From assembly GCA_965205075.1 (NCBI GenBank), contig OZ242036.1, positions 5,822,599-5,886,598 of the forward strand: a stretch of 64,000 nt of DNA. The letters are read 5' to 3'. The notes below the pieces were generated by a model. It did no database searches, was not told the origin of the DNA, and saw only the letters and a list, made by a program, of their open reading frames with translations. The number at the start of each line of letters is the position of its first letter. Position 1 is the stretch's first letter. Origin of the DNA: Candidatus Poribacteria bacterium (lineage in GTDB: Bacteria > Poribacteria > WGA-4E > PCPOR2b). The position numbers were made by a program, and so were the translations under genes. This document shows, in pieces, positions 8,581 to 45,030 of the stretch.

Positions 8581-9393
8581 TTAACGGCCTATTTTAATAC
8601 TGCCCCAGGTGGTTGTTAATTTTTGTTTAGGCTCAACCGACAGGAGTAGACCCTTGGAATCCAACTCTACCTCCTGTTTGGTTAGGGCACGGTCATAAAG
8701 CTTAAACTCATCCATAACAAAAAAGGCAGCACGACTCGTCGTTCCACCAATGCGCAGGTGCCCTCTACCCTGAACGAAACCACGCTGAACGTTAAAATTA
8801 CCTTTTGCTTTGCCATTGATATATATCGTCAAGTTAGCAGATTTTTTGACACCTGCAATATGATACCATTTTTTCTGATCAAAACCGCCACCTTCGCCGT
8901 CAGGACCTATTGCATCAGGCCCAATCCTACCAAATTTATACACAAGGGATAGACCGGGATCAGTAAGGGAGATGCCTGGCGAATCCCCTTTCTCATCACC
9001 AACTAAGATGTTAGCCTTTTTCAAAACACTGTTAGGCGGCCGAGGAGGCGGGGCAATCAAGGGTTTAAGGACATAAAACCAAAAGGCGTAAGTGTGATCG
9101 GCGTACTTATCCATTCTGTCAAAGGAGTCAACGCGGAATTGTGCACTGATGTTGTTGAAAATTTTTAACGCCCCCGTTCCTTTGTACACCTCCGCGGGCT
9201 CATTGGTGATTGTAGCACCAAACCGGAGTTTACCATTGTTACCCCCACCGGTCAGGTCTTCAACCTTTCTTCCATCAAGCTGCTCATCAAACGTGAAATA
9301 TAGAATCATATTGGGATCTAGAGCCGCCGAGACGGAGAAAATCGTAATGGACAGAAGTGTGGTAACGAAACCTACTGCAATGAGCGTTCTCAT
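8581..9393 (-). CDS. Secreted LamG/concanavalin-A-like lectin domain protein, tandem paralogue 1
   Basis: Start moved to MRTLIAV (ATG at 9393, RBS GAAGGAAG). It has a signal peptide ending SA-ALDP. LamG_3-like signature WYHIAGVKK...IYINGK...LRIGG...FVMDEFKLYDRALT..EV. C-terminal LSVEPKQKLTTTWGSIKIGR. Confidence 0.8.
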   Translation of the reverse strand: MRTLIAVGFVTTLLSITIFSVSAALDPNMILYFTFDEQLDGRKVEDLTGGGNNGKLRFGATITNEPAEVYKGTGALKIFNNISAQFRVDSFDRMDKYADHTYAFWFYVLKPLIAPPPRPPNSVLKKANILVGDEKGDSPGISLTDPGLSLVYKFGRIGPDAIGPDGEGGGFDQKKWYHIAGVKKSANLTIYINGKAKGNFNVQRGFVQGRGHLRIGGTTSRAAFFVMDEFKLYDRALTKQEVELDSKGLLLSVEPKQKLTTTWGSIKIGR

Positions 9394-9468
9394 TTTCAAT
9401 TCTTCCTTCATCAACGGATTCGCCGGCCCCCTAGCAAAGTCAAGGCTATCCCTCTCCCTAAATAATAT

Positions 9469-9497
9469 AGCCCCAACGGATAAAATCCCTTGGGGCT
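9469..9497 (-). terminator. Hairpin downstream of LamG paralogue 2 (candidate intrinsic terminator)
   Basis: AGCCCCAACGGAT-aaa-ATCCCTTGGGGCT forms a 13-position stem with one mismatch. It lies 37 nt after the stop at 9534 on the minus strand and is followed there by AU-rich ATATTATTTA. Homologous hairpins sit behind three other paralogues. Confidence 0.45.
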
Positions 9498-9533
9498 AAA
9501 GTCGGACGGATCCAGTCTACAAAATTTCATTGA

Positions 9534-10349
9534 TTAGTGCCCTGTTTTGAGACGACCCCAAGTGGTCGTCAATTTGTCTTGTGGTTCAACCGACAGGAAT
9601 ACACCTTGTTCCATCAACTCCACCTCTTTTTCGGTCAGAATCCGATCGAACAGCGCAAACTCATCCATGGCGAAGTAGGCAGCTCGGGTCCGCGTACCGC
9701 CGATGCGGAGTCGCCCTTCACCCTGAGGGACTTTTTTGGGCACATCGAATCTCCCTTCCTCCTCGCCGTCGATGTAAATAATCAGGTCTGCTCCCTTTTT
9801 GACACCCACGATGTGATACCATCTCCTCAGTTCAAACTCCGACCCTTTACCGTCTGGACCGAGTCCGTCAATTCCACCGCCTTCACCAACCTCATACCAG
9901 AGAGTAAAGCTGTTTCCGCTAATCTGGACGGAGGGCGATTTTGAAAAGCCTGCGTTGAGTACTTGCGCTTCATCGGCATTTTTCTTGAAGATCGATCGCG
10001 CCTCACCTTGATGAAATCCTTCAAAGAAATAGATCCAAAAGGCGATGGTGTGATCTTGATACTTATTCATGCGATCAAAGGGTTCGACGCGGAATTGTGC
10101 ACTGATATTCCCTGCAATTTTTAGAGCACCGGCCCCTTTGTAGACTTCCTCTGGCTCATTGGTGAGTGTTGCACCCAGTCTGAGTTTCCCATCGTTGCCG
10201 CCGCCGGTTAGGTCCGCAACCTTCCTTCCATCCAGCTGCTCATCAAACGAGAAATACAAAATCAAATTCGGATCTAGAGCCGCTTGGGCAGAGAGAACCG
10301 TTATGAACAGAAACATGGTAATGAAATTCAACCGAATAAACGTTCTCAT
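9534..10349 (-). CDS. Secreted LamG/ConA-like domain protein, tandem paralogue 2
   Basis: Start moved to MRTFIRL (ATG 10349). The AGGAGG RBS directly follows the TAA stop of paralogue 3. Same N- and C-terminal conserved blocks; tail LSVEPQDKLTTTWGRLKTGH. Confidence 0.8.
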   Translation of the reverse strand: MRTFIRLNFITMFLFITVLSAQAALDPNLILYFSFDEQLDGRKVADLTGGGNDGKLRLGATLTNEPEEVYKGAGALKIAGNISAQFRVEPFDRMNKYQDHTIAFWIYFFEGFHQGEARSIFKKNADEAQVLNAGFSKSPSVQISGNSFTLWYEVGEGGGIDGLGPDGKGSEFELRRWYHIVGVKKGADLIIYIDGEEEGRFDVPKKVPQGEGRLRIGGTRTRAAYFAMDEFALFDRILTEKEVELMEQGVFLSVEPQDKLTTTWGRLKTGH

Positions 10350-10363
10350 TTGTGACTCCTCCT

Positions 10364-11161
10364 TTAACGACCAGTTTTGATGTGGCTCCAAGTGGTTGTC
10401 AATTTGGCTTGCGGCTCGACAGACAAGAATATCCCCTTAAAAACTGCCGTCACTTCTTTCTCGGTTAAGGGACGGTCGTAAAGTTGAAACTCGTCCATCG
10501 CAAAAGAGGCAGCTCGGCTCGTCGTTCCGCCGATACGAAGTTGCCCCTTACCCTGAATAAAGTCTCGTTTGACCTTAAAATTGCCTTTTTCTTCGCCGTT
10601 GATGTAGATGATAAGGTCGCTTGCCTTTTTGACACCCGCGATGTGATACCACGTCTCTAGGTTAAAACCTTTACCCTTACCGGCGGGGCCAACTGCATCA
10701 ACCCCCTGGCCGTCAAATTTGTATTCAAGTGCTAGACCGGGATCGGTCAGAAAGATGCCTGGCGCGCTCCCTTTCTCCTCACCAACTAAAATGTTGGCCT
10801 TTTTCAAAATACTTGATCGTGCACCCATGGGGTTGAATATATAAATCCAAAAGGCGTAGGTGTTATCTCCATACTTATCCATTCGGTCAAACTCTTCCAC
10901 ACGAAGTTGTGCACTGACGTTGTTGAAGAGTTTAAGAGCACCTACCCCTTTGTGGACCTCTGCGGGTTCGTTGGTGATTTTGGCACCAAACCGCAGCTTA
11001 CCGTCGTTACCGCCGCCGGTCATGTCTTCGACCTTTCTTCCATCGAGCTGCTCTTCAAACGTGAAATACAGAATCAAATTTGGATCTAGAGCCGCCGGGG
11101 CAGAAAAAATCGTCATGACCAGAAACGTCGTGATGAAACTTACCGTAATAAGCGTTCTCAT
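10364..11161 (-). CDS. Secreted LamG/ConA-like domain protein, tandem paralogue 3
   Basis: ATG at 11161 with AAGGAGGAA RBS; the ORF-track start is an upstream TTG. Signal peptide present; tail LSVEPQAKLTTTWSHIKTGR. Confidence 0.8.
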   Translation of the reverse strand: MRTLITVSFITTFLVMTIFSAPAALDPNLILYFTFEEQLDGRKVEDMTGGGNDGKLRFGAKITNEPAEVHKGVGALKLFNNVSAQLRVEEFDRMDKYGDNTYAFWIYIFNPMGARSSILKKANILVGEEKGSAPGIFLTDPGLALEYKFDGQGVDAVGPAGKGKGFNLETWYHIAGVKKASDLIIYINGEEKGNFKVKRDFIQGKGQLRIGGTTSRAASFAMDEFQLYDRPLTEKEVTAVFKGIFLSVEPQAKLTTTWSHIKTGR

Positions 11162-11271
11162 TTTCAATTCCTCCTTTGATCGTTCGATATTAAACTTTCA
11201 TCAATTGAACAACACACATCAGCAGCTCCATCGGTGTCCTACCAAAGTCAAAACTATTCTTAAAATAATAT

Positions 11272-11300
11272 AGCCCCGAAGAATACAATCCCTCGGGGCT
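11272..11300 (-). terminator. Hairpin downstream of LamG paralogue 4 (candidate intrinsic terminator)
   Basis: AGCCCCGA...TCGGGGCT stem, homologous to the hairpin at 9469..9497. Confidence 0.4.
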
Positions 11301-11345
11301 AAAACCGAACGCCTTCCACCTAACATACTATCAGAACTTTATCGA

Positions 11346-12164
11346 TTAGCGATCCGTTTTGAGATTCCCCCAAGTGGTCGTCAATTTTCTTTGAGGTTCG
11401 ACCGACAGGAGTATGCCTTTGGCATCCAACGCCACCTCTTGTTCGGTTAGGGGACGGTCATAAAGCTGAAACTCATCCATCGCAAAAGAGGCGGATCGTA
11501 TATTCGTTGCGCCAATACGAAGGTGCCCCTTACCTTGGACGAAATCGCGGTTAACCTTATGTCTACCTTCTTGTTTGCCATCAATGTAGATTATCAGGGC
11601 TGATCCCTGTTTGACACCCGCGATGTGATACCATTTGTTCAATTCAAACTTTTCACCTTTGCCGCCGGGACCGACCGCTTCAATCCCTATAGCCCCTTGG
11701 TCGCCAAATTTATATACCAGTGATAGACCGGGATCGGTAATCCAGATGGCTGGCGCATGACCTTTGTGAGCCTGCCCTATAACGTTACCCTTTTCCACAA
11801 CGCTTCCCTGTACACAACATGGATCTTTTCTGACACCGTATACATAGAGCCAAAAGGTGAAGGTGTTATCTCCATACTTATTCATCCGGTCAAACTCGTC
11901 CACACGGAACTGAGCACTAATGTTGTTGAAAATTTTTAACGCCCCCGTCCCTTTGTATACCTCTGCGGGTTCGTTGGTGATTTTGGCACCCAACTTGAGT
12001 TTCCCATCGTTCCCGCCGCCGGTCATGTCTTCGACCATCTTCCCATCCAGCTGCTCATCAAACGAGAAATACAAAATCATGTTTGGATCTAGAGCTGCTG
12101 GGACAGAAAGAACCATTATGACTAGGAATATGGTGATGCAACTTAACGCAATAAGCGTTCTCAT
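11346..12164 (-). CDS. Secreted LamG/ConA-like domain protein, tandem paralogue 4
   Basis: 272-aa ORF starting MRTLIALS. It has a VRKDPCC loop insert and the tail LSVEPQRKLTTTWGNLKTDR. Confidence 0.8.
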   Translation of the reverse strand: MRTLIALSCITIFLVIMVLSVPAALDPNMILYFSFDEQLDGKMVEDMTGGGNDGKLKLGAKITNEPAEVYKGTGALKIFNNISAQFRVDEFDRMNKYGDNTFTFWLYVYGVRKDPCCVQGSVVEKGNVIGQAHKGHAPAIWITDPGLSLVYKFGDQGAIGIEAVGPGGKGEKFELNKWYHIAGVKQGSALIIYIDGKQEGRHKVNRDFVQGKGHLRIGATNIRSASFAMDEFQLYDRPLTEQEVALDAKGILLSVEPQRKLTTTWGNLKTDR

Positions 12165-12279
12165 TTTTAATTCCTCCTTTGATCGTTTGATATTGAACTT
12201 TAGTCAATTAAACAACGCACATCAACAGATCTATTGTAGACCTGCAAAGTCAAGGCTATCCCCCTTTCTCAAATGACAT

Positions 12280-12308
12280 AACCCCAATGGATAAAATCCT
12301 TCGGGGCT
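12280..12308 (-). terminator. Degenerate copy of the inter-paralogue hairpin (downstream of paralogue 5)
   Basis: AACCCCAATGGAT-aaa-ATCCTTCGGGGCT. Same architecture as 9469..9497 but with extra mismatches. Confidence 0.3.
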
Positions 12309-12354
12309 AAAATTGACTGCATCCAGTCTAACATACTATTTGGAGCTCCATCGG

Positions 12355-13170
12355 CTAACGTCCTGTTTTGAGATGCCCCCATGTGGTAGTCAATTTTGTC
12401 TCTGGTTCGACTGACAGGAACTGCCCCTTAGCATCCAACTTCACCTCTTGTTCACTTAAGGCGCGGGTATAAAGCCCAAACTCATCCATCGCAAAAGAGG
12501 CGGCTCGAATCCGCGATCCGCCGATCCGCAGATGCCCCTTACCCTGAACGAAATCACGCTTGACGGCATATTTGGCTTCTTGTTTCCCGTCAATATAGAT
12601 TATTAGGTCTGCTCCCTTTTTGACACCTGCGATGTGATACCATTTGTTCAGTTCAAACTTTTCACCCTCACCGCCGGGACCGACTCCAAGCCCTACAGCT
12701 CCTTGGTCGCCAAATTTATATGTAAGTCCTAGCCCCGGATCAGTCACAAAGATGGCTGGCGAGTTCCCTTTCACATCACCAACTAAAATATTGGCTTTTT
12801 GCAGAACAATTTCCTCTGGACAACACGGATCGTTTCTTACACTGTATATGTAAAGCCAAAAGGTGTAGGTGTTCTCTTTATAGTTATCCATTTCCCTAAA
12901 GGACTCGACGAGGAACTGAGCACTGATGTTGTTGAAAATTTTTAACGCGCCCGCTCCTTTGTATACCTCTGCGGGTTCGTTGGTGATTTTAGCGCCCAAC
13001 TTGAGTTTTCCATCATTCCCGCCACCGGTCAGGTCTGCAACCATCCTTCCATCAAGTTGTTCATCAAATGCGAAATACAAAATCATCTCCGGATCCAGAG
13101 CCGCCGAGGTAGAGAGAGCCATCATAACTAGAAGCATGATGGCGAAACTTACCGTGATAAGTGTTTTCAT
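12355..13170 (-). CDS. Secreted LamG/ConA-like domain protein, tandem paralogue 5
   Basis: ATG at 13170 (MKTLITV) after AAAGGAGGAG. VRNDPCCPEE loop; tail LSVEPETKLTTTWGHLKTGR. Confidence 0.8.
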   Translation of the reverse strand: MKTLITVSFAIMLLVMMALSTSAALDPEMILYFAFDEQLDGRMVADLTGGGNDGKLKLGAKITNEPAEVYKGAGALKIFNNISAQFLVESFREMDNYKENTYTFWLYIYSVRNDPCCPEEIVLQKANILVGDVKGNSPAIFVTDPGLGLTYKFGDQGAVGLGVGPGGEGEKFELNKWYHIAGVKKGADLIIYIDGKQEAKYAVKRDFVQGKGHLRIGGSRIRAASFAMDEFGLYTRALSEQEVKLDAKGQFLSVEPETKLTTTWGHLKTGR

Positions 13171-13312
13171 TTTCAACTCCTCCTTTTATACGGAATTTAG
13201 GTTGAGTAATAAGTCAACTGTTGTAACATTTTGCACCCCCGATAAATCGGGAGCCCTCTCAAAATCTTCTCTGTAGTTGAAATGGTTGAGACCCTACTGT
13301 CCAAAATGATAT

Positions 13313-13342
13313 AGCCCTGATGGATAAAAATCCTTCAGGGCT
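13313..13342 (-). terminator. Hairpin downstream of LamG paralogue 6 (candidate intrinsic terminator)
   Basis: AGCCCTGA-tggataaaaatcct-TCAGGGCT. Homologous position and sequence to the other inter-paralogue hairpins. Confidence 0.4.
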
Positions 13343-13387
13343 AAAATAGGATGGATTTCACCTAACATACCATCAAAGGGCCATCGG

Positions 13388-14206
13388 TTAACGACCTGTT
13401 TTGAGATGCCCCCAAGTGGTCGTCAATTTTCTTTCGGGTTCAACCGATAGAAATATACCTTTGGAATCCATCTTTACCTCTGCTTCGGTTAAGGCGCGAT
13501 TATAAAGCCCAAACTCATCCATGGCAAAAGAAGCGGCTCGTTGCCGCGTTCCACCGATACGCAGATGCCCTTTACCCTGAACGAAATCGCGTTGGACCTT
13601 ATACCTCGCTTCTTCTTTACCATCAATATACATTGTTAGGCTTGTTCCCTGTTTGACCCCCGCGATGTGATACCATTTTTTTAATTCAAATGGTTGACCC
13701 TTGCCGCCGGGACCGACCGCCTCACCCTCAATAGCCCCTTGGTCGGTAAATTTATATACCAGAGTTAGTCCTGGATCGGTTATAAAGATACCCGGCGCGC
13801 TCCCCTTGTCAGCAGCATCCATAACATTGGCTTTTTTGAGGATACTTTCCACTGCACAACACGGATCATTTCTGACACTGTATATGTAGAGCCAAAAGGT
13901 GTAGGTGTTTTCTCTATAGTTATCCATCTCCTTAAAAGACTCAACGAGGACCTGAGCACTGATGTTTTGGAATATTTTTAACGCCCCTGCTCCTTTGTAC
14001 ACTTCTTCGGGTTCGTTAGTAATTTTGGCACCTAACTTGAGTTTTCCGTCGTTCCCGCCGCCGGTTAGGTCTTCAACCTTCCTTCCATCCAGCTGCTCGT
14101 CAAATGCGAAATACAAAATCATGTTCGGATCTATAGCCGCCGGAACAGAGCAAACCGTTACGGCAACAAAGGTAATAAGGAAACTGAACCAAATAAACGT
14201 TCTCAT
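13388..14206 (-). CDS. Secreted LamG/ConA-like domain protein, tandem paralogue 6
   Basis: 272-aa ORF starting MRTFIWF. VRNDPCCAVES loop; tail LSVEPERKLTTTWGHLKTGR. Confidence 0.8.
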   Translation of the reverse strand: MRTFIWFSFLITFVAVTVCSVPAAIDPNMILYFAFDEQLDGRKVEDLTGGGNDGKLKLGAKITNEPEEVYKGAGALKIFQNISAQVLVESFKEMDNYRENTYTFWLYIYSVRNDPCCAVESILKKANVMDAADKGSAPGIFITDPGLTLVYKFTDQGAIEGEAVGPGGKGQPFELKKWYHIAGVKQGTSLTMYIDGKEEARYKVQRDFVQGKGHLRIGGTRQRAASFAMDEFGLYNRALTEAEVKMDSKGIFLSVEPERKLTTTWGHLKTGR

Positions 14207-14302
14207 TTTTAATTCCTCCTTTTTCCGGTTTAGGTTTTCTGTTTAGGTTGAATGGTACTCAACTTAAGCTAGTTAGTGTGGTATTATCAGAGGTTCCATC
14301 GG

Positions 14303-15169
14303 TCAACGATTGGTTTTGATATCGCCCCAGGTGGTTGTCACTCTTCTTTCAGGTTCAACCGACAGAAGTATGCCTTTGGCATCCAACGCTACTTCCTTTT
14401 CGGTTAAGGCCCGGTCATAAAGGGAAAACTCATCCATGATGAAATTGGCAGAACGTTCCCGCGTGCCACCAATACGCAGTAACGCCTCGCCCTGAACGAA
14501 ATCTCTTGGGACATCAAATCTGCCTTGCTCCTTGCCGTTGATATAGATTATCAACTCGTTTGCCTTTTTGACGCCCGCGACGTAATACCACTTCTTGAAC
14601 TCAAACACCGTACCGTTGCCACCGGGACCGATTATTCCTTTGGCTCCTATAGCCCCTTGGAGCCCGCCGCCCCCTTTATCTTCAAATTGATAGATAAGGG
14701 CTAACGGTTCCTCCTGAAGCAAGATGCCCGGTGCCCAACCTTTCACATTGCCCTCTAGAACTCTGCCCTTTTCCAGAATGCTTGCCCTACCTTCTCCACA
14801 GGTTCCGCCACAATGTTCCCAATTCCAAGGCTTAGCGGTGTTACCTAAGATATAGATCCAGAAGGTATAGGTGTTATCTTTATACTCATTCATTCTCTTA
14901 AAGGGTTCTACGCGGACCTGAGCGCTAATGTTCGTGAATTTAACCGCCCCCGCCCCCTTATAAACCTCCTCGGGCTCGTTGGTAATCTTGGCACCCAACT
15001 TGAGTTTCCCGTTGTTTCCCCCGCCGGTCAAATCTGCTATCTGCTTACCATCAAGCTGCTCGTCAAACGAGAACCATAAAAGCATGTTCGGATCTATGGC
15101 AGCTGGTGCAGAGAGAATAATCATAAACAGAAATGTAGTGATCAAGCTCGCCCATATAAACGTTTTCAT
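14303..15169 (-). CDS. Secreted LamG/ConA-like domain protein, tandem paralogue 7 (longest variable loop)
   Basis: Start moved to MKTFIWASL (ATG 15169, RBS GGAAAGGAAAGG). Loop NTAKPWNWEHCGGTCGEGRAS; tail LSVEPERRVTTTWGDIKTNR. Confidence 0.75.
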   Translation of the reverse strand: MKTFIWASLITTFLFMIILSAPAAIDPNMLLWFSFDEQLDGKQIADLTGGGNNGKLKLGAKITNEPEEVYKGAGAVKFTNISAQVRVEPFKRMNEYKDNTYTFWIYILGNTAKPWNWEHCGGTCGEGRASILEKGRVLEGNVKGWAPGILLQEEPLALIYQFEDKGGGGLQGAIGAKGIIGPGGNGTVFEFKKWYYVAGVKKANELIIYINGKEQGRFDVPRDFVQGEALLRIGGTRERSANFIMDEFSLYDRALTEKEVALDAKGILLSVEPERRVTTTWGDIKTNR

Positions 15170-15236
15170 TCTTAACCTTTCCTTTCCCAAATCCGTCAAT
15201 CTATTTCAATTAAACCGCCCTAAAAAAATTAAACTC

Positions 15237-15314: not shown

Positions 15315-15492
15315 TAATTCCTGATGTAATAATCTGCAGAGATTTGCAATGAAATGAGCAGATTCGCAGCGGTTATAGCGTTCAGCATAACTTCGGTTGG
15401 TTAATGAGATTGGCAAACGAATCGCCATTCGTGCGGACAATGTGTCGGCCAATGCAAATTTCTGGAATAACTACAAACAGGAGGATATTCAA

Positions 15493-16293
15493 ATGCAAAG
15501 GTTGAAGAGATTTCCAATCAGCACCCTGGTTCTTATCTTTTTGATAGGCTTGTTGCCATCCTTGGGATATAGCCAGATCCAATTGGATGACCCGCTCCTC
15601 GTATTCTACTTTCCTCTTAATGAAGGCAAAGGGGATATAATAAAAGACCTCGGTCCCAACCAGCTTGAGGGAGAGCTTGAAGGCGGCCCAGCATGGGTCG
15701 ATTCCGTAGATCCGAAATTTGGCACCTCCCTCTCGTTTATAGATGGAAAAGAGCAATCGGGCTTCGTAGCAGATGTTCCTGCTTTGGATCTCGGCGAATC
15801 GGATACCACCCTCGCTGCTTGGGTTAAGACTGGCAAAGAGGTAGGCCAGGGATTTGTTTATATCAAGTGGGATGGCGGTGGCTGGTATATCAAGCTAAGG
15901 GATAAGAAACTCTACACCCGCTATCACATACCTGCGCCAGTCGGCTTTGGTGCTGAAATTCCTAGCAAAACTGAGATTGCCGATGACGTATGGCATCATG
16001 TCGCCTCAATGCGTACAAACAAAGAGACGGTTCAGCTATTTATTGATGGCAAACTAGACCATAAGGATGATGCGGGTTCAGCACCCGGTTCCGCTAATAC
16101 CCCCGCCAATTTGGAAATTGGTCGGTTTAAAGAGGAGCGTTTCTGGGATGGAGAGTTTGATGAACTTTTCCTGATGAAGAGAAATTTGACAAATGCCGAA
16201 CTTCAACTGTTGATGGACGGACAGTTTTTAGCAGTTGAATCGAAGGGCAAACTTCCTCTCACTTGGGGTAGTCTCAAAGCTGCTAGGGATTAA
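15493..16293 (+). CDS. Secreted LamG/ConA-like domain protein, divergent eighth member
   Basis: Start moved to MQRLKRFPIS (ATG 15493, RBS CAGGAGGA), with a signal peptide. WHHVASMR...LFIDGK and FDELFLMKRNLTNAEL LamG signature. Tail FLAVESKGKLPLTWGSLKAARD. Confidence 0.75.
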   Translation: MQRLKRFPISTLVLIFLIGLLPSLGYSQIQLDDPLLVFYFPLNEGKGDIIKDLGPNQLEGELEGGPAWVDSVDPKFGTSLSFIDGKEQSGFVADVPALDLGESDTTLAAWVKTGKEVGQGFVYIKWDGGGWYIKLRDKKLYTRYHIPAPVGFGAEIPSKTEIADDVWHHVASMRTNKETVQLFIDGKLDHKDDAGSAPGSANTPANLEIGRFKEERFWDGEFDELFLMKRNLTNAELQLLMDGQFLAVESKGKLPLTWGSLKAARD

Positions 16294-19317: not shown

Positions 19318-19413
19318 CTCCTTCACCGCCAAGAATCGCTCACTCTTTGTTGTATTCAAGGATAGCCACACCTCGACGTGCCAGTCAAAACTAATTTCAC
19401 AGGGGAACGTTTA

Positions 19414-20358
19414 ATGCACAAAGATTCTGATGGAAAATCTGCATACAGCATGGGGCTACTTATCATCTTGATTGCTTCACTATGGCTGGGTTGTGGAAAT
19501 GATGAGCCAGAGAGTGAAGCCCCTCCTGACAGAATTGTCGGTAACGACATGGCGGAAATGGTGCTGATTCCTGCTGGGGAGTTTGAAATGGGTGATCCCT
19601 TCAACGAAGGTACTACCTATGAACGCCCCGTTCACACCGTCTTCATTGACGATTTCTATATTGATGTCTACGAAGTGACCAACGTGATGTATGCGAAGTT
19701 TCTTACTGCGATGGGGAAGCATGTGGGGGATACGGGTCATATCTGGTTGGATATTGGCGACGGTGACGAGATGATTGAATTGGTTGGCGAGCAATACCGA
19801 CCGAAGGCAGGATTTGAAGAGTATGCCGTAGTTGAAGTGAGTTGGTACGGTGCAGCGGCGTATGCCCAGTGGGCAGGCAAACGCCTACCGACCGAAGCGG
19901 AGTGGGAGAAAGCCGCCCGTGGTGGGCAGGTCAGGGAACGGTATCCGTGGGGAGATGATGAGCCTGATGGAAGTCAGTGTAACTACGCGGATAAGAATAC
20001 AAGCTATTCTTGGTCAGATCAAACCGCTGACGATGGTTACCAAACAACCGCTCCTGTGGGTCTATATCCACCAAATGACTACGAGTTGTACGACATCGCT
20101 GGAAACGTATGGGAATGGTGCGTAGACGAATTGGATGTAGAGTATTACGAAAATAGTCCAAGAGAGAACCCTGTGTCAGGCGGAACTACACTCTTGATGC
20201 CTGATAACTTCAATAATATTAGGGAACGTCGCATACTTCGCGGCGGTTCGTGGCACAGCACCCCGGAGATCCTCCGTGTGGCGTATCGTTACAGCAGCGA
20301 ACCTGCGGTCACGCTCAGTTACTTTGGCTTTCGTTGCGTAGCCCCTGTTGATCCTTAG
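19414..20358 (+). CDS. Formylglycine-generating-enzyme (SUMF1/FGE-sulfatase) family protein, secreted or lipid-anchored
   Basis: Start moved to MHKDSDGKS. MVLIPAGEFEMGD, YIDVYEVTN, WYGAAAYAQWAGKRLPTEAEWEKAARGG, GNVWEWC, RGGSW and FGFRC are the classic FGE-family blocks. Confidence 0.85.
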   Translation: MHKDSDGKSAYSMGLLIILIASLWLGCGNDEPESEAPPDRIVGNDMAEMVLIPAGEFEMGDPFNEGTTYERPVHTVFIDDFYIDVYEVTNVMYAKFLTAMGKHVGDTGHIWLDIGDGDEMIELVGEQYRPKAGFEEYAVVEVSWYGAAAYAQWAGKRLPTEAEWEKAARGGQVRERYPWGDDEPDGSQCNYADKNTSYSWSDQTADDGYQTTAPVGLYPPNDYELYDIAGNVWEWCVDELDVEYYENSPRENPVSGGTTLLMPDNFNNIRERRILRGGSWHSTPEILRVAYRYSSEPAVTLSYFGFRCVAPVDP

Positions 20359-20468
20359 TCCTATTTTAGCTTCTGAACAATTCGCGTTATGATATTCTCA
20401 TGCCATTATCGAAAACTCCTTTAGGTCTAAAACCCAAGCGTTCTCGGCTTGCGGAAAAAGCTAACCCC

Positions 20469-21608
20469 ATGAAAACCTACAAGTTCAAACTGTATTCCAA
20501 TCACGGCAACCGTGAACTGCATAAGACAATCGAAGGACATGCTTGTGTGTGGAATCACTGTGTTGCCCTCCAGCGTCGATACTACGGTATCTATGGTAAA
20601 TATATCAGCAAGTTTCGGTTGATTAACCATATCTCTAAACTGAAACGGTTGCCTCGTTTTGCCCACTGGAATCGGTTGCCGAGCCAAGCCGTTCAAGACG
20701 TAGCAACCCGCATTGATAAAGGCTATAAGGCGATGTTTGAAGCGAGAGCCAAAGGTAAAGCGTGGGGCAGACCCCGTTTCAAACCACGCGGTAAATATAA
20801 ATCCTTCACACTGCTTCAAGCGGGTTGGAAACTGCTGCCCGGTAACCAGATTCAAATCGGCAAACGCATCTATCACTATTTCAAGTCCCGTGATGTACTT
20901 GGCCCCCCGAAACGTTGCACTATCAAACGGGACGCTGTTGGTGACATCTATATCTGTATCCTAACAGACTATGAGGCACCTGACCTTCATCGAGTCATGA
21001 CGGGTAAAATCGCAGGCTTTGATTTCGGTCTGAAAAGGTATCTCACCGGTCATAACGGACATGACATAGAATCACCGCTGTTTTTCAAACGGAGTATAAA
21101 CGCAGTTAAACGTGCCAATCGTAATCATTCACGGAAACAAAAACAATCAAACAATCGTGAAAGGGCACGGCTTGACTTGGCACGGAAGCACCGCAAGGTA
21201 GCGAACCAACGAGAGGACTTCCACTGGAAACTTGCACACCAACTGACTGATGAATACGACGAGATACGCCTTGAGGACTTAAACCTACAGGGTATGAAAG
21301 CCCTCTGGGGGCGTAAGGTCAGTGATCTGGGGTTCGCCGATTTCGTCAATAAGTTGAAATACATTGCAGCCAAAAAGGGTGTCAAAATAGTTTTCATTGA
21401 TAAGTGGTATCCTTCCAGTAAGACTTGTTCGGCTTGTGGGGCAATCAATGAAGCGTTGGATCTGCGGGATAGAACATGGCAGTGTGATAATTGTGGTGCT
21501 GTCCATGATAGAGACCGCAATGCAGCAATTAACATCTACAGGGTAGGGGCATCTACCCCCGAAGGAGAGGACGTAAGTCCCGATTCGTCAGGCAATCCTT
21601 GTCGATAG
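20469..21608 (+). CDS. tnpB: TnpB (OrfB) RNA-guided endonuclease-type transposase accessory protein
   Basis: Start moved to MKTYKFKLY. RuvC-I is IAGFDFG, RuvC-II is IRLEDLNLQGM, the zinc ribbon is CSACG...CDNCG, and RuvC-III is HDRDRNAAINI. Confidence 0.85.
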   Translation: MKTYKFKLYSNHGNRELHKTIEGHACVWNHCVALQRRYYGIYGKYISKFRLINHISKLKRLPRFAHWNRLPSQAVQDVATRIDKGYKAMFEARAKGKAWGRPRFKPRGKYKSFTLLQAGWKLLPGNQIQIGKRIYHYFKSRDVLGPPKRCTIKRDAVGDIYICILTDYEAPDLHRVMTGKIAGFDFGLKRYLTGHNGHDIESPLFFKRSINAVKRANRNHSRKQKQSNNRERARLDLARKHRKVANQREDFHWKLAHQLTDEYDEIRLEDLNLQGMKALWGRKVSDLGFADFVNKLKYIAAKKGVKIVFIDKWYPSSKTCSACGAINEALDLRDRTWQCDNCGAVHDRDRNAAINIYRVGASTPEGEDVSPDSSGNPCR

Positions 21609-23812: not shown

Positions 23813-25729
23813 TTGAGTCCGACAGACAGTCGTTTTCTCGCTTCAACTCACCGCCCCCAGCCAGAAATTCGTTGGCGTGTAATCTGGCTGGCAGCAGCTA
23901 TCATCCCTTTTAACAACTACTGGGTCTACGCGATGCTGCGGTGGGCACAGGGCCTCCCGACGACCATGTCGCTTTTCTTCAATGTGATTTTTATCTTTGC
24001 GATTCTGCTCGCGTTGAATTATGGAATTTCCCTATATTCGCCGCGCTTGGCATTGACCCAAGGCGAATTGCTGACGTTCTACGCCATGCTTTCCGTCGCC
24101 ACTGCAATCGCCGGCGCAGATTTCTTCGCCGTAATCATCACACATATTGCCGTTGGCGGCTGGATGGCAACTGAGGAGAACGAATGGGCGACATTGTTTC
24201 ACCGTTACTTCCCCGATTGGCTGGCATTGACCGACAAAAATAGTCTCAGAACCTATTTTGTCGGTGAGTCGGCCCTTTACCTTGACGAGCATCTGCGGTT
24301 ATGGTGGAGGCCTGTCCTTTCATGGTCTGGGTTTATCGTTGTCCTCGTTTGCACGGCGTTTTGCATCAACGTCGTTATGCGGAAACAGTGGATTGAGATA
24401 GAACGACTCAGCTACCCAATTATCGAACTTCCGCAGCAGATGACAACCAAGGGCTTCTTTCGGAATCGGTTGATGTGGGCCGGAGCGATCCTCGCTGGCG
24501 GTATGGATATCGTCAACGCGCTGCATTTCTTGTATCCATCCATCCCAGGACTCGGTGGCGATTTCTTCGACCTGCAACCCTATTTTACCACGAAACCGTG
24601 GAACGCTATCGGTTGGACGCCTGTCACGCTCTTCCCCTTTGCTGTAGGGATGGCATATTTTATGCCACTCGATCTCTCCTTCACCTTCTGGTTTTTCTAT
24701 ATCTTTTGGAAATTTGAGTTGATCATGGGGAGTATTCTTGGGTTTCAACAGATCCCCAACTTTCCGTATATCTTTGAGCAATCATTTGGCGTCTGTGTCG
24801 GTGTGCTGATTCTGGTGTTTTGGAGTGCACGGCATCATTTACGAAACGTGCTGATAGGCGCATGGCGCGGCGAAAAAGCGTCTGAGTCTAACGAACCGAT
24901 TTCTTATCGTACGGCGGTCCTCGGGGTAATTATCGGTTTCCTGTTGTTAATCGGTTTTTGGGTAGTGGCGGGGATGTCGCTCTGGGTCGCTGTCCTGGTT
25001 TTCATTATCCATTTTACGACCGTAACCGTTACGGCTCGCATCCGCGCCGAACTCGGACCACCTCTCCATGATCTCCGCAGGATGGGACCTGATGTGCTAA
25101 TTCCACAGATGTTTGGCATGCGGCGAGTAGGTCCTAGAAACCTCAGCCTGTTCGCGCTCGTATTTCCTTTTAATCGTGCCTATCGGGGCAATGCTATGCC
25201 GCCGCAACTGGAAGGACTGAAACTCGCCGAGCGAGCAGGCATCTCGACGCGGCGCGTCGGATTCGCGATACTGATTGCTGTTTTCATCAGTCCATTACCT
25301 CTGTTCTGGGGCGGATTACAACTCGGCTACGAATCCGGTGCGGTGGCGTTTTGGGGCGGCGGTGTCTTTCGGCGAACCCAAAGTTGGCTCACCAATCCAA
25401 TGCCTGTGGATGTCCTAGGAATCTTGGCAATGCTCTTCGGCACGCTCTTCACCTTCGCTCTCACCGCCTTGCGTCATCGTTTCGTTTGGTGGCCCCTCTA
25501 TCCCGTTGGGTACGGCATCACAGGCACATGGGCGGTCAACTTTTTTTGGTCTTCGGTACTCGTTGCTTGGGTGATTAAGTTGTGCATCCTCCGCTTTGGA
25601 GGCATAAGAACGTTTCGCCGCCTAGCGCCGTTCTTTCTAGGAATGCTATTCGGTGAGTTTCTGCTCGGAGGTGTATGGGCACTGATTGGTGTGATTGTCC
25701 AGATGCCAATGTATCGGTTTATTTGGTGA
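23813..25729 (+). CDS. Uncharacterised polytopic membrane protein, paralogue 3 of 5
   Basis: 638-aa ORF with an uncertain TTG start. Motifs TEENEW, WIEIERLSYP, KPWNAIGW, PLDLSFTFWFFY, RIRAELGPPLHD, AMPPQLEGLKLAER, WWPLYPVGY and PFFLGMLFGE. Confidence 0.8.
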   Translation: MSPTDSRFLASTHRPQPEIRWRVIWLAAAIIPFNNYWVYAMLRWAQGLPTTMSLFFNVIFIFAILLALNYGISLYSPRLALTQGELLTFYAMLSVATAIAGADFFAVIITHIAVGGWMATEENEWATLFHRYFPDWLALTDKNSLRTYFVGESALYLDEHLRLWWRPVLSWSGFIVVLVCTAFCINVVMRKQWIEIERLSYPIIELPQQMTTKGFFRNRLMWAGAILAGGMDIVNALHFLYPSIPGLGGDFFDLQPYFTTKPWNAIGWTPVTLFPFAVGMAYFMPLDLSFTFWFFYIFWKFELIMGSILGFQQIPNFPYIFEQSFGVCVGVLILVFWSARHHLRNVLIGAWRGEKASESNEPISYRTAVLGVIIGFLLLIGFWVVAGMSLWVAVLVFIIHFTTVTVTARIRAELGPPLHDLRRMGPDVLIPQMFGMRRVGPRNLSLFALVFPFNRAYRGNAMPPQLEGLKLAERAGISTRRVGFAILIAVFISPLPLFWGGLQLGYESGAVAFWGGGVFRRTQSWLTNPMPVDVLGILAMLFGTLFTFALTALRHRFVWWPLYPVGYGITGTWAVNFFWSSVLVAWVIKLCILRFGGIRTFRRLAPFFLGMLFGEFLLGGVWALIGVIVQMPMYRFIW

Positions 25730-25886: not shown

Positions 25887-27806
25887 GTGCCTGAAACGAC
25901 CTTCCAAAACGGTCTGACGCTCAAATCCTTTTTTATTACACTGTGTCTCATTCCTATCAATATTTACTTCGTTGTTCAACTTGAAGTTGTTCGTTATACA
26001 TTTCCCACGCTCGTCCATCCACTATCGAATGTCATTTTTATTCTATTTTGGCTACTTCTGATTGGAGCCATTCTCAAGAAAATCTCCCCCAAGCTTGGAA
26101 TTAGCTCACCAGAACTTCTGACAATCTATGTCATGTTGGGCGTTGTATCGGCTCTCTGCTCGGCTGACACGATGCAAATCTTAATCACCATTTTGGGGCA
26201 TCCCTTCCGCTTTGCAACACCTGAAAATCAATGGCGTGAACTGTTCTGGAAGGAATTGCCCGCTTGGCTCACCGTCCAAGATGAAAAGGCACTAACCCCC
26301 TATTACGAAGGGGGATCTAGCTTCTATATAAGACGGCATCTGTATGCGTGGCTCCGTCCCGCGCTGGCATACATTGTATTTATCTTTGTGCTGATGTTTG
26401 TGATGCTGTGCATCAATACGCTGTTACGGATTCAGTGGACGGAGCGGGAACGGTTGACTTATCCAATTATTCAACTTCCACTGGAAATGACGGACACCAG
26501 TAATAGGTTCTTCAAAAATAAACTGATGTGGCTTGGCTTCAGCATCGCTGCGTTGATTAGTATAATGAATTTGCTCAATTCGATTTACCCCGCTGTTCCC
26601 TATATTCCCGTCAAGCGTCAGAATTTACACCAATATTTCACTGGCCGCCCTTGGAATGCGATGGGCTCCTTCCGGGTTTCGTTTTATCCCTTTGTCATCG
26701 GCATTGGGTTCCTCATACCACTAGATCTCCTCTTTTCATGCTGGATGTTTTACGGAGTCTATAAAATTGAACTAATGGTCGGTAACATAATGGGGTGGCG
26801 CAATCTGCCGCGTTTTCCCTATTTCAACGAACAGGCATTGGGCGTCTACGTTGCACTGCTCGTATTTGTGCTGTGGGTCGGCAGAGTCCATTTCAAGGGG
26901 TTGGTGCGCCATCTGCTAGGTTCATCTTCACTCGATGATTCCCGTGAACCGATGCCATATCGCTTGGCAGTCGCAGGTATATTAATTGGATTGATATTCT
27001 TGATGGCATTTTCCTACAGAGCGGGGATGTCCTTGTGGGTTACTCCGATCTTTTTCGCGATTTACTTTCTAGTCGCGATAATGATTGCGAGACTCCGTGC
27101 GGAATTGGGTTTTTTAGTACACGATTTACACTACATTGACCCGCACAACACGCTCGTCACCGTATTTGGAACACGCCGCCTCGGATCGAGCACATTGACC
27201 GTCTTTTCGTTATATCAGTTTTTCAATCGTGCCTATCGGGCTCACCCGATGCCACCACAACTGGAAGGCTTGAAAATCGCTGAAAGACGAAATATCAATC
27301 CACGTCACATAGCTGCAGCGATTCTACTCGCCACCTTAATTGGATCGGTGAGCGTTTTTTGGGTATTGTTAGATAACTACTACCGACACGGCGCAGAAAC
27401 CGGGTACTATGGACCATGGGCACTGGGGTACGGACGAGCCATCTATGGTCAACTCGAAACGTGGCTGAACTACCCCCGAGAGACAGATGTTCCAGCTATC
27501 GCTTTCATGGGAGGCGGACTCGGTTTCGCAGCACTACTCATGTTCCTAAGAACGCGCTTTCTGTGGTGGCCCCTCCATCCACTCGGCTATGCCATGGCAA
27601 ATAGCTGGGGGATGTTCAATCTGTGGGCTTGTCTCTTTGTTGCATGGATAGCGAAAGCAATCATCCTACACCACGGCGGACTTAGGGCATACCGACAAGC
27701 GATCCCCTTCTTTTTGGGGCTTGCCCTAGGAGACTATATGTTCGGCAGCCTGTGGAGTATTATTAGTATTGCAACCAACAGCACTCTGTATCAATTTTTT
27801 CCCTAG
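25887..27806 (+). CDS. Uncharacterised polytopic membrane protein, paralogue 4 of 5
   Basis: 639-aa ORF with a GTG start 9 nt after GGAGG. It has the same motif set and aligns by eye along its full length with paralogue 5. Confidence 0.85.
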   Translation: MPETTFQNGLTLKSFFITLCLIPINIYFVVQLEVVRYTFPTLVHPLSNVIFILFWLLLIGAILKKISPKLGISSPELLTIYVMLGVVSALCSADTMQILITILGHPFRFATPENQWRELFWKELPAWLTVQDEKALTPYYEGGSSFYIRRHLYAWLRPALAYIVFIFVLMFVMLCINTLLRIQWTERERLTYPIIQLPLEMTDTSNRFFKNKLMWLGFSIAALISIMNLLNSIYPAVPYIPVKRQNLHQYFTGRPWNAMGSFRVSFYPFVIGIGFLIPLDLLFSCWMFYGVYKIELMVGNIMGWRNLPRFPYFNEQALGVYVALLVFVLWVGRVHFKGLVRHLLGSSSLDDSREPMPYRLAVAGILIGLIFLMAFSYRAGMSLWVTPIFFAIYFLVAIMIARLRAELGFLVHDLHYIDPHNTLVTVFGTRRLGSSTLTVFSLYQFFNRAYRAHPMPPQLEGLKIAERRNINPRHIAAAILLATLIGSVSVFWVLLDNYYRHGAETGYYGPWALGYGRAIYGQLETWLNYPRETDVPAIAFMGGGLGFAALLMFLRTRFLWWPLHPLGYAMANSWGMFNLWACLFVAWIAKAIILHHGGLRAYRQAIPFFLGLALGDYMFGSLWSIISIATNSTLYQFFP

Positions 27807-27893: not shown

Positions 27894-29876
27894 ATGAAAA
27901 GTATATTGACAGAACCTCAAAATACCCGTTTTACCTTAACAGAGAATACCCCTGTGCCGTTCCAGAGCGGTTTAACACTTAAATCATTCGTGATCGCTTC
28001 CCTGCTGATTCCGGTCACGGTTGCTTGGATCATTCAGCTTGAAGTGGTTCGCCATACCTTTCCAACGCTTGTTCATCCGCTCTCGCATGTCATTTTCACG
28101 ATTTTCTGGCTTGTTCTGATCGGGTGGATATTCGGTAAAATCTCCCCCAAGCTCGGTCTTTCTCAACAGGAACTCCTCACGATCTACTTCATGTTGTGCA
28201 TTGTTTCCACTCTTTGTTCGTATGACTGTATGGAGATCTTCGTACCGATCATGGCGCATGCGTTCCGGTTTGCTAGTCCTGAAAACGAATGGCGGCAGCT
28301 GTTTTGGCGACAACTGCCGGAGTGGCTCACAGTTCACGACGAAAAAGCGGTAACGGCTCTTTATGAAGGAGGTTCAAGTCTTTACACCGAGAGGTATTTA
28401 AAGGCGTGGCTTGGTCCGGCGGTGGCGTGGATGGCGTTTATCTTTGCGTGGATGGTTGTGATGCTGTGTATTAACGCGCTGTTGCGGGTTCAGTGGATTG
28501 AGCGTGAGCGGTTGACCTATCCCCTGACCCAACTTCCGTTGGAGATGACCAATCCGAGGTTAGGCTTCTTCAGAAACAGGTTGATGTGGCTCGGTTTCGG
28601 CATTGCTGCCCTGATCAGTATTGTGAATCTGCTTCATTCCATCAACCCTATTATCCCCTATATCCCTGTCAAACGCCAGAGCATCAGTCACTATTTTACC
28701 ACCCGTCCTTGGAATGGGATGGGTGGTGTGCAGGTCGCTTTCTATCCTTTCGCGATTGGGATCGGCTTTCTTATACCGCTGGATCTCCTATTTTCATGCT
28801 GGGCGTTTTTCTGGATCTACAAAATTGAACTGATGATTGGCAGCATCATGGGTTGGCGAGGTCTACCACGCTTCCCTTATCCCGCCGAACAGGCTTTCGG
28901 TGTATATATGGGGCTGCTAGGGTTCGTCCTCTGGACTGGCAGATCGCATATCAAAGGGATAGTGCGTCACCTGTTCAGTTCCCGTGCTTCCCCATCACAA
29001 CTAGATGATTCCGGCGAACCGATGCCATATCGCCTTGCTGTTGCGGGCATCATACTCGGCCTGATTTTTCTAATGGCATTTTCCTATAAGGCAGGTATGT
29101 CGCTGTGGGTGATTCCAATTTTCTTCGCAATCTATTTCTTACTATCGGTAATGGTTACGCGACTCAGGGCGGAGCTGGGGTTCCTAGTACACGGTTTGAA
29201 ATTCATCAGTCCACATAACATGATTGTTGCCGGGGTTGGAACATGGCGACTTAATACCAGCACACTGACTGTCTTTTCGCTGTACATGTTTTTCAATCGC
29301 GCCAACTGGGCAAATCCAATGCCGGAACAGCTGGAAGCCTTGAAAATCTCGGAAAGGCGGAATATTAACCCACGCCATACAGCCGCTGCGATTCTGCTTG
29401 CGACAGTTATTGGATCGGCGGTAACTTTTTGGCTATTGTTGGATATCTACTATCGACACGGCGCGGAATCTGGATACTTTGATCCCGCCGTATTGGGATT
29501 TGGGCGTGATGTCTATGTGCAGCTTGAAAACTGGCTGAACTCTCCTAAAGAGCCAGATCGTCCAGCACTCGCCTTTGTGGGGGGTGGGGTTGTGTTTACT
29601 GTGTTGCTGATGTTTTTGCGGGCGCGCTTCCTGTGGTGGCCGCTCCATCCACTCGGTTATGCCACAGCACAGAGTTGGGGGATGGCGAACCTTTGGTGCT
29701 GTCTCTTTGTCGCTTGGGCGTGCAAGGCTATCATCCTACGCTATAGCGGATTCAACGCATATCGACGCGCAATCCCATTCTTTCTCGGACTCGCCTTAGG
29801 GGACTATATTTTGGGTAGCCTCTGGAGTATTTTGGACATTCCAACCACTATCTCTTTATACCTATTTTTCCCTTAA
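27894..29876 (+). CDS. Uncharacterised polytopic membrane protein, paralogue 5 of 5
   Basis: 660-aa ORF with the same motif set. It is the closest relative of paralogue 4. Confidence 0.85.
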   Translation: MKSILTEPQNTRFTLTENTPVPFQSGLTLKSFVIASLLIPVTVAWIIQLEVVRHTFPTLVHPLSHVIFTIFWLVLIGWIFGKISPKLGLSQQELLTIYFMLCIVSTLCSYDCMEIFVPIMAHAFRFASPENEWRQLFWRQLPEWLTVHDEKAVTALYEGGSSLYTERYLKAWLGPAVAWMAFIFAWMVVMLCINALLRVQWIERERLTYPLTQLPLEMTNPRLGFFRNRLMWLGFGIAALISIVNLLHSINPIIPYIPVKRQSISHYFTTRPWNGMGGVQVAFYPFAIGIGFLIPLDLLFSCWAFFWIYKIELMIGSIMGWRGLPRFPYPAEQAFGVYMGLLGFVLWTGRSHIKGIVRHLFSSRASPSQLDDSGEPMPYRLAVAGIILGLIFLMAFSYKAGMSLWVIPIFFAIYFLLSVMVTRLRAELGFLVHGLKFISPHNMIVAGVGTWRLNTSTLTVFSLYMFFNRANWANPMPEQLEALKISERRNINPRHTAAAILLATVIGSAVTFWLLLDIYYRHGAESGYFDPAVLGFGRDVYVQLENWLNSPKEPDRPALAFVGGGVVFTVLLMFLRARFLWWPLHPLGYATAQSWGMANLWCCLFVAWACKAIILRYSGFNAYRRAIPFFLGLALGDYILGSLWSILDIPTTISLYLFFP

Positions 29877-44283: not shown

Positions 44284-45030
44284 ATGAGAAAATATCTGTT
44301 GGTAGCTGCGTGCTCAGGGATTTTTGCTTTACTCTGGGCCCCTGCTTCTTTAGCGCTTTTTTTTGATTTTGAAGGTGAAGAGCAGTTAGACCAGTGGGAA
44401 GTCTTAATCCCTCCCAACGATCCAGGAAACGATCCAGACGCTTCATGGCAAATCGTCAATGGTGCACTGAAGTTAAAATCTGGAGGAGCGTGGGATTTTC
44501 TTGCACTCAAAAACTTTGAGTTCACCGATGGAACGATACGCTATAAACTTAAGTGGATCGAAGGTGGGATTTGTGAAATAGGTGTGTTTTATCGTCTGGA
44601 AGAATCCCCCAATTTACCGCACTATCACGTCCATGTTTCCGCTATCAACGTTCCACCCACAGGGGTACGATGGGGGTATATCGAAAAAGTTATAAATGGG
44701 GCAAAAGCAACCGGCGGGCGGTGGGTGCCCACAATCAATAGGCAGATACCCGGATGGGGACACGCACCGGTCGATAAGTGGTTTGAGTTCAAAATCGAGG
44801 TCAGAGGGGATGAGCATGTCGTCCACGCTGGACGTGAGGGGCGGCTTAAGAAAGCCATCGAATTGAGGCACGACGCGAAGCGCAGTGGAAGGGTTGGGCT
44901 TGTCAACTATTCTGCGGAAGACACCGTACTTATTGATGATTTTGAAGTGATTCCAGACTCTATCATTGTCAGTGTAGAGAGACGCGGCAGGCTCACAGCG
45001 GTGTGGGGAAAGATTAAGGGTGACAAATAA
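44284..45030 (+). CDS. Secreted ConA/LamG-fold (DUF1080-like) protein carrying the same C-terminal tail as the LamG array
   Basis: AAAGGAGG RBS and a signal peptide. WQIVNGALKLKSGG...FEFTDGTIRYKLKW resembles DUF1080. The tail is VSVERRGRLTAVWGKIKGDK. Confidence 0.6.
   Translation: MRKYLLVAACSGIFALLWAPASLALFFDFEGEEQLDQWEVLIPPNDPGNDPDASWQIVNGALKLKSGGAWDFLALKNFEFTDGTIRYKLKWIEGGICEIGVFYRLEESPNLPHYHVHVSAINVPPTGVRWGYIEKVINGAKATGGRWVPTINRQIPGWGHAPVDKWFEFKIEVRGDEHVVHAGREGRLKKAIELRHDAKRSGRVGLVNYSAEDTVLIDDFEVIPDSIIVSVERRGRLTAVWGKIKGDK

Follow-up and report, generated by a model that had tools for sequence, protein, structure and literature searches.

The LPXTG, PEP-CTERM and type IX secretion system (T9SS) C-terminal domain (CTD) signals each led to the finding of a dedicated envelope machine. 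In Poribacteria, single-cell genomes are reported to encode T9SS-type CTDs on proteins of the phylum with no Por machinery to go with them (Kamke et al., 2014; PMC3909097). A different C-terminal appendage is considered here: a tail of about 17 conserved residues followed by 1-6 trailing ones, called the TTWG tail after its core, which ends nine proteins with predicted signal peptides in a 64,000-nucleotide stretch of a Candidatus Poribacteria genome (contig OZ242036.1, positions 5,822,599 to 5,886,598; hereafter the window). The tail recurs on unrelated proteins, is the best-conserved part of its carriers and has apparently not been described before: LATTWG, LTTTWG, LSTTWG and related strings are not found in the searchable text of papers and preprints. 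It is judged moderately probable that the tail is a phylum-specific linear recognition tag, read non-covalently by an envelope partner after Sec export.

The tail and its carrier proteins

A six-frame scan of the window finds exactly nine motif-ending open reading frames (ORFs), eight of LamG type and one of DUF1080 type, each with [LV]-[SA]-V-E-x3-[KR]-[LV]-x3-W-[GS]-x-[IL]-K plus 3-4 residues in its last 20-21 residues (Table 1). Seven form a tandem array, and their translated tails conform to LSVEP..(K/R)(L/V)TTTW(G/S).(I/L)K(T/I)(G/D/N)(R/H); the eighth LamG gene lies beside the array, and the DUF1080-type gene is 29 kb from it. These are the same seven array members, eighth member and 44284 protein to which the original prediction had ascribed a common tail, and the scan adds no others. 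Pfam assigns Laminin_G_3 (PF13385) to the array members (E 1e-13 to 6e-18) and 3keto-disac_hyd/DUF1080 (PF06439) to the 44284 protein (28 bits; cut-off 26.8). Each of the nine proteins starts with a classical signal peptide, in which M-(R/K)-x precedes a hydrophobic stretch and A-x-A. No C-terminal sorting model of NCBIfam matches the five window proteins compared. A loose regular expression finds no tagged ORFs in 738 kb of non-poribacterial metagenome DNA; the window tails are therefore not due to chance. Orthologues of the 44284 protein at 33-95% identity retain the tail, and the array has an orthologous counterpart in a 6.8-Mb Poribacteria metagenome-assembled genome (MAG; L003), where the relative of the 13388 protein is 94% identical to it; the window is therefore of poribacterial origin.

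Beyond the window, a degenerate DNA pattern for K-L-x-T-T-W-G-x-(hydrophobic)-K, applied to one genome for each of 185,579 species, returned at least 120 loci. These contain 175 tail-bearing ORFs, 145 of them complete, and the complete ORFs, with tails removed, fall into 21 unrelated BLAST clusters. By Pfam, 86 of the 145 carry Laminin_G_3, 7 each carry DUF1080, CBM9 or F5/8 type C, and 3 carry PD40 propellers; further tagged families include Kelch and BNR propellers, PA14, a DUF3108-like family and a lamin-tail domain in a 968-aa protein, and several clusters have no Pfam match. An esterase-like 363-aa protein (alpha/beta-hydrolase-like) encoded on an IMG/VR contig is also tagged. An N-terminal, signal-like hydrophobic segment is present in 141 of the 145 tagged proteins (97%), compared with 46% of untagged neighbouring ORFs; a possible lipobox is seen in 8. 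The cargo consists mostly of small carbohydrate-binding-type modules with no other anchor.

Could the tail be simply the last strand of a ConA-like fold, an artefact of gene conversion or of recent duplication, or a DNA element conserved at the 3' ends of genes? Within the window, eight of the nine carriers are paralogous and both families are ConA-like jelly rolls: by Foldseek, the 44284 model resembles CBM66, DUF1080 and L-type lectin folds, and the structural neighbours of both models are ConA-like jelly rolls of lectins or glucanases. (The likeness of the LamG model to clostridial-neurotoxin binding domains and trans-sialidase lectin domains, at 13-18% identity, is that of jelly rolls in general and implies no toxin function.) Against this explanation, the family profiles end ahead of the tail: Laminin_G_3 stops at about residue 245-250 of 272, and position 186 of 187 in the PF06439 model falls at residue 212 of a 240-aa relative. 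The AlphaFold2 (AF2) models also leave the tail unpacked. In the DUF1080-like model (20-sequence alignment) the jelly roll has a predicted local distance difference test score (pLDDT) of 80-96 and its last strand spans residues 213-224, while residues 229-248 have pLDDT 29-35 and no secondary structure; in the LamG model (87-sequence alignment) pLDDT is 80-97, and over the last 22 residues it falls to 58, 49 and 42. Beyond the last strand or helix of the domain only about 20-28 residues remain, and no sheet is predicted there. Furthermore, the tail is found on folds other than jelly rolls, and its carriers include beta-propellers, CBM9, discoidin, PA14, a lamin-tail domain and the alpha/beta-hydrolase-like protein.

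The codons tell against a DNA-level cause. In the last 20 codons of the seven paralogues, synonymous divergence is close to that of the gene body (pS 0.55, against 0.59) and nonsynonymous divergence is low (pN 0.14); several synonymous codons encode most of the conserved tail residues, and the codon choice of the DUF1080 tail is different again. With pS near saturation and the codons so different, a conserved DNA element, gene conversion and recent duplication are excluded as the cause, and selection acts on the tail peptide, not on the DNA. Fold element and artefact alike, given hardly any credence, are refuted by these results within the limits of prediction, and the models support a tail lying outside both the LamG and the DUF1080 folds. 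The original prediction had proposed that the tail is transferable rather than part of the LamG fold, and had allowed that the idea would fail were the tail confined to LamG proteins as an integral last strand. Counted by DNA pattern, its carriers are not LamG proteins only, with at least 21 unrelated clusters that cover several folds and a predicted unstructured tail on both window scaffolds, so this structural part of the proposal is supported.

The logo of 174 distinct tails reads [LT]-[AP]-V(94%)-[ED]-[PA]-x-[GD]-K-L-[AT]-T-T-W-G-x-[LI]-K; its K-to-K positions are partly fixed by the search pattern, and the V-[ED]-[PA]-x-[GD] part is free of that bias. Information content is about 45 bits, with W at 100% and V, K, L, T, T, G and K each at 91-98%; between unrelated families, conservation of T-T-W-G and of both K is 93-100%. 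The 12 residues that precede the motif carry no information and are therefore marked as a linker. In an alignment of 87 LamG proteins with about 24% identity, no column is invariant except the W and K of the tail, which also holds 6 of the 11 nearly invariant ones; across all 145 tagged proteins the sole invariant column is W. A stop codon follows the last K within 1-6 codons (mode 3) in 130 of 137 pattern matches, which were picked regardless of frame context. Over all tails the trailing segment is 1 to 12 residues long (mode 3) and variable in sequence; it is rich in R, Q, S and K, with a net charge mostly of +1.

Two deviant cases may be recorded. In P0078, a 100-aa fragment, two tail-like motifs stand in tandem (GKLTATWGLIK ... 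VEPVDKLTITWG) and are followed by unrelated sequence; this may be a frameshifted or fused gene end. At one locus with 65% GC (L119), five PD40 propeller paralogues end in a divergent ...[ST]xWGWLK(Q/A)..., and the Kelch proteins of the same locus bear a canonical KLTTTWGAMK tail.

Distribution and genomic surroundings

The tag is essentially confined to the candidate phylum Poribacteria, which is a strong tendency: 108 of the at least 120 loci listed are labelled Candidatus or uncultured Poribacteria. A few tens of chance matches are expected in the whole genome collection (the author's estimate from information content), and matches in Synechococcus (L048), Bacteroidaceae (L115) and one further bin (L044), all away from the C-terminus, are evidently of this kind. 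Most tag-bearing genomes are those of sponge symbionts. Among 1.84 billion representative proteins, a profile of the tail gives 52 matches at E <= 1e-3, of which 50 are C-terminal; a 20-aa motif cannot score higher, which explains the small number. Two proteins from this search, P0063 and P0090, are spurious repeat translations. A word-indexed protein search with two concatenated tails returned 34 candidates, all LamG orthologues, and is uninformative on other carriers.

No PDB sequence matches the tail profile significantly. The best match (E 0.077, not significant) is 7pjj chain A, residues 653-665, an internal segment of a GH3 beta-glucosidase, EPGGRLPTTWGSL, which differs little from the tag consensus; it could offer a structural precedent for how the motif is shaped, or be a coincidence.

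Table 1. Tagged genes and their tails in the window, with the loci elsewhere that have CRTAC1-like neighbours.
Feature	Position or locus	Strand	Basis
Tandem array of seven exported Laminin_G_3 paralogues, all tagged	8581..15199	-	ORFs, Pfam, six-frame scan
Coding sequences of the array, first four	8581-9414, 9534-10391, 10364-11167, 11346-12164	-	stops at 8581, 9534, 10364, 11346
Coding sequences of the array, last three	12355-13176, 13388-14206, 14303-15199	-	stops at 12355, 13388, 14303
Tail LSVEPKQKLTTTWGSIKIGR	8584..8643	-	translation
Tail LSVEPQDKLTTTWGRLKTGH	9537..9596	-	translation
Tail LSVEPQAKLTTTWSHIKTGR	10367..10426	-	translation
Tail LSVEPQRKLTTTWGNLKTDR	11349..11408	-	translation
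Tail LSVEPETKLTTTWGHLKTGR	12358..12417	-	translation
Tail LSVEPERKLTTTWGHLKTGR	13391..13450	-	translation; AF2 model of the protein gives tail pLDDT 42-58
Tail LSVEPERRVTTTWGDIKTNR	14306..14365	-	translation
Eighth Laminin_G_3 gene, divergent in orientation to the array	15397..16293	+	ORF, Pfam
Tail of the eighth gene, LAVESKGKLPLTWGSLKAARD	16228-16290	+	translation
Exported DUF1080/3-keto-disaccharide-hydrolase-like ConA-fold protein, 248 aa, signal peptide and TTWG-type tail	44284..45030	+	ORF, PF06439
Tail VSVERRGRLTAVWGKIKGDK, divergent TTWG tag of the 44284 gene	44968..45027	+	translation; AF2 pLDDT 29-35, no secondary structure
CRTAC1-like neighbour loci	L021, L030, L040, L060, L061, L065, L076, L085, L098, L102, L104, L105, L111		

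The array genes, 3' ends included, are covered at about 90-98% identity by contigs of four metatranscriptome runs. RNA libraries therefore contain these genes or their counterparts from close relatives; DNA carry-over is possible. Contig word depth in the RNA assemblies is highest for the eighth gene, but depth is a poor guide to expression. The metaproteome supplement of PMC6081418 holds no peptide-level data. Between the array genes, a motif, TTTTAGCCC(C/T)(A/G)A(G/A)GGATT, recurs on the minus strand, about 40-60 nt beyond the stop codons at 9534, 11346, 12355 and 13388; it may be a promoter, leader or terminator element shared by the tandem paralogues.

In the 8-kb loci around tagged genes, the commonest untagged neighbours are secreted TPR proteins (17 loci), CRTAC1-like FG-GAP/UnbV propellers (14 loci), PhyH dioxygenases, GFO-type oxidoreductases and extracytoplasmic function (ECF) sigma factors. 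CRTAC1-like genes encode proteins of about 550-570 aa and often come with a secreted TPR gene; at six or more non-orthologous loci they stand in the same orientation beside tagged genes, which belong to at least five families, and none occurs in the window. The family is abundant in other phyla that lack the tag, and its metagenome relatives, at 37-53% identity, belong to such phyla. The CRTAC1-like propeller may be a functional partner or merely an abundant neighbour, and is a lead rather than a finding.

Directly downstream of the eighth LamG gene of the window lies a gene for an exported protein of 628 aa with two PpiC-type rotamase domains, which resembles the periplasmic chaperones SurA and PpiD (16382-18268, plus strand). 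Large membrane proteins with DUF6785 and DUF6784 are encoded at 1437-3401 and 4781-6748 (plus strand), the only two large ORFs scanned; ORFs of similar size lie at 23813-25729, 25887-27806 and 27894-29876. PhyH dioxygenase genes (512-1387, 3714-4571 and 18386-19165) alternate with the large membrane-protein genes, and a TnpB/Cas12f-like gene (OrfB_IS605 and TNB domains; 20400-21608, plus strand) adjoins an FGE-sulfatase gene at 19378-20358. Elsewhere, two IMG/VR contigs filed as viral (L001 and L002) encode C-terminally tagged proteins; the portions retrieved contain only a transposase and a homing endonuclease and, by PHROGs, none of the hallmark genes of phages, and a phage-encoded origin of these proteins is not established.

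What might read the tail

Within a single phylum, the tail combines portability between folds with a strictly C-terminal position on exported proteins only and with a very strong, sequence-specific conservation behind a flexible linker; this combination points to a sorting or docking tag. A role in secretion, anchoring or processing is suggested by the strict position, the signal peptides of the cargo and the phylum-wide conservation. How might such a tag work? In the reading favoured here, with a degree of confidence that is moderate at most, the tail would act in four steps: (i) Sec would export the cargo by an ordinary cleavable signal peptide, as the sequences suggest; (ii) the lectin-like domain would fold and leave the tail exposed on its variable linker, in line with the AF2 models and the uninformative linker columns; (iii) the near-invariant K-L-x-T-T-W-G-x-L-K would be bound sequence-specifically by a Poribacteria-specific envelope protein, plausibly as an added beta-strand; and (iv) binding would retain or display the cargo at the envelope or surface, or pass it to an outer-membrane export route. 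With cargo that is mostly lectin-like and has no other anchor, the tag would assemble a surface set of such modules. Conservation this specific, about 45 bits in total, is better explained by a stereospecific protein partner than by binding to lipid.

A bolder version can be put forward only tentatively: the tail could be the address label of a previously unrecognised, Poribacteria-specific pathway for envelope sorting or surface display, with a receptor of its own. Candidate receptors would be a PorV/SprA-like outer-membrane component or a scaffold that takes the tail as a donor strand. Such a pathway would organise a large and rapidly diversifying set of lectin-like surface modules. The tag itself might help to address the 2014 observation of type-IX-style cargo without recognisable type IX machinery in Poribacteria.

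Several points weigh against a phylum-specific tag with an envelope partner. Neither a gene for a plausible dedicated machine beside the tagged genes of the window nor, in the neighbour search of the 8-kb loci, a reader, receptor or processing enzyme was found. That AF2 leaves the tail disordered when it models a monomer is weak evidence. Among the at least 120 loci listed, the restriction to Poribacteria is a strong tendency and no proof, and 8 of these loci carry only the label 'uncultured bacterium'. Finally, a contig binned as Pseudomonadota (L053, JAPPIL010000222.1) has two tagged genes. The sponge sample series that yielded this contig also gave a Poribacteria bin; the case is one of mis-binning or of true occurrence outside the phylum.

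Might the tail dispense with a reader? As a peripheral membrane or lipopolysaccharide (LPS) anchor, or a self-associating strand that zips tagged proteins together, it would need none, and none was found. Interfacial Trp with Lys/Arg characterises the C-terminal amphipathic anchors of some periplasmic enzymes, and the tail has Trp, Leu/Ile and flanking Lys/Arg, together with its mostly positive trailing residues; a short helix of low confidence is modelled at residues 264-270 of the LamG protein. Such a self-sufficient element is nonetheless improbable: mean tail hydrophobicity (-0.27 to 0.02) and hydrophobic moment (0.12-0.40) are both low, lipid anchors tolerate substitution whereas the T-T-W-G core and both K hardly vary between unrelated families, and a lipid-binding peptide of a generic kind would hardly be expected to stay within one phylum.

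It is likewise unlikely that the tail is a cleavable, sortase-like sorting signal, cut near V-[ED]-P so that the cargo moves to a surface glycan or lipid; its handling would then resemble that of CTD cargo by T9SS PorU/PorV or of PEP-CTERM proteins by exosortase. The V-E/D-P motif, which recalls P-E-P, a spacer of about 12 residues and the basic end do echo tripartite sorting signals, and Poribacteria have TIGR04183-type CTD proteins whose export route is reported missing (PMC3909097). But the spacer lacks hydrophobic character: no C-terminal hydrophobic helix is present in any of the 145 proteins, and the highest 15-mer Kyte-Doolittle score in their last 30 aa averages 0.35 and peaks at 1.47, so membrane-embedded enzymes of the sortase type would have no tether. 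Conservation, too, peaks in the distal K-L-x-T-T-W-G-x-L-K and not at the putative cleavage motif, and at 20 aa, with no predicted fold, the tail is far shorter than a CTD of 70-100 aa. Nor does any CTD or CTERM model match the 145 proteins among the families listed: the best 25 of 27 NCBIfam families include no C-terminal sorting model, and the best 25 of 38 Pfam families include no CTD or dockerin.

A further alternative, that the tail is directed at the host and read by sponge proteins, for example to modulate phagocytosis or attach to the matrix, would suit the many sponge symbionts among the carriers and their lectin-like cargo. It is very unlikely: there are tagged genes in a MAG whose label (L084, OC6_3000m_MAG_233) gives its source as an ocean sample from 3000 m, NCBI taxonomy has a pelagic class Pelagiporibacteria, and a strictly C-terminal position would be unneeded.

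Whatever the partner in the favoured reading of a non-covalently bound tag, the tail is a simple sequence handle by which the exported lectin-like repertoire of Poribacteria can be listed. It would permit a pan-tag antibody or peptide bait and a search for the machinery by phylogenetic profiling; a 17-residue, non-hydrophobic, phylum-wide tag would imply a reader in uncultivated sponge symbionts that are ecologically dominant.

Comparison with known systems

How does the tail compare with described C-terminal signals? The original prediction had pictured it as lacking a hydrophobic helix, ending in basic residues and matching none of PEP-CTERM, LPXTG, T9SS CTD or GlyGly-CTERM; the description holds in each respect, and no profile of these signals appears among the families listed for the tagged proteins. 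The outer-membrane beta-signal recognised by the beta-barrel assembly machinery (BAM) does not fit: only 20 of 132 tails end in F, W or Y, with R, Q and K dominant, and the tagged cargo comprises soluble jelly rolls and propellers, not the beta-barrels that are BAM substrates. Peroxisomal targeting signal 1 (PTS1), read by the TPR receptor PEX5, and PDZ ligands resemble the tail in using a short unstructured C-terminal peptide as an address. In those systems, however, the signal is the last 3-5 residues at a fixed distance from the carboxylate, whereas the last 1-6 residues of the tag are variable, its trailing length ranges as given above, and its conserved core lies just upstream.

The tripartite signals, PEP-CTERM/exosortase, LPXTG/sortase, GlyGly-CTERM/rhombosortase and PGF-CTERM/archaeosortase, are likewise short, lineage-restricted C-terminal signals on diverse exported proteins, and the upstream V-E-P and basic end of the tail recall them. 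They differ in the hydrophobic transmembrane segment between motif and basic end, which the tail lacks; the tail is best conserved in its polar T-T-W-G core and has no match to their hidden Markov models. Set against PEP-CTERM (TIGR02595), the tail has V-[ED]-[PA] and an end that is mostly +1, but neither a hydrophobic helix nor a profile match; for LPXTG and GlyGly-CTERM, the motif itself is absent from the logo, as are a transmembrane segment and a profile match.

T9SS CTDs (type A, TIGR04183/PF18962; type B, TIGR04131) come close in another way: they too sit at the extreme C-terminus of unrelated, Sec-exported passengers, have no membrane helix and mark many cargo proteins per genome. A CTD, by contrast, is a folded Ig-like domain, a beta-sandwich of about 70-100 residues; the TTWG tail is predicted to be unstructured, with 20-28 residues at pLDDT 29-58 after the domain, and no CTD profile matches five window proteins or appears in the listed families of the 145.

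Dockerin-cohesin pairs and donor-strand docking (chaperone-usher and type V pilins) share with the tail the principle of a terminal appendage that joins binding or catalytic modules non-covalently to a scaffold. A dockerin differs in being a Ca-binding, duplicated EF-hand-like module of about 60-70 aa, against a tail of 20 aa with no dockerin family among the listed matches. Known donor strands differ in that they belong to pilin folds. The haloarchaeal Tat-fimbria tip adhesin TafC combines a LamG domain with a terminal donor strand (PMC11821415); the TafC model matches 57 of the 145 tagged proteins through the LamG domain, in a match that excludes the tail, and the donor strand of TafC is N-terminal. 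Should the tail turn out to be a small docking peptide that binds a specific partner, protein engineers could use it as a tag. Should it be, as tentatively suggested, the address label of a dedicated pathway, it would have no precedent among bacterial C-terminal signals for sorting or anchoring, which are so far either transmembrane-helix signals or folded domains.

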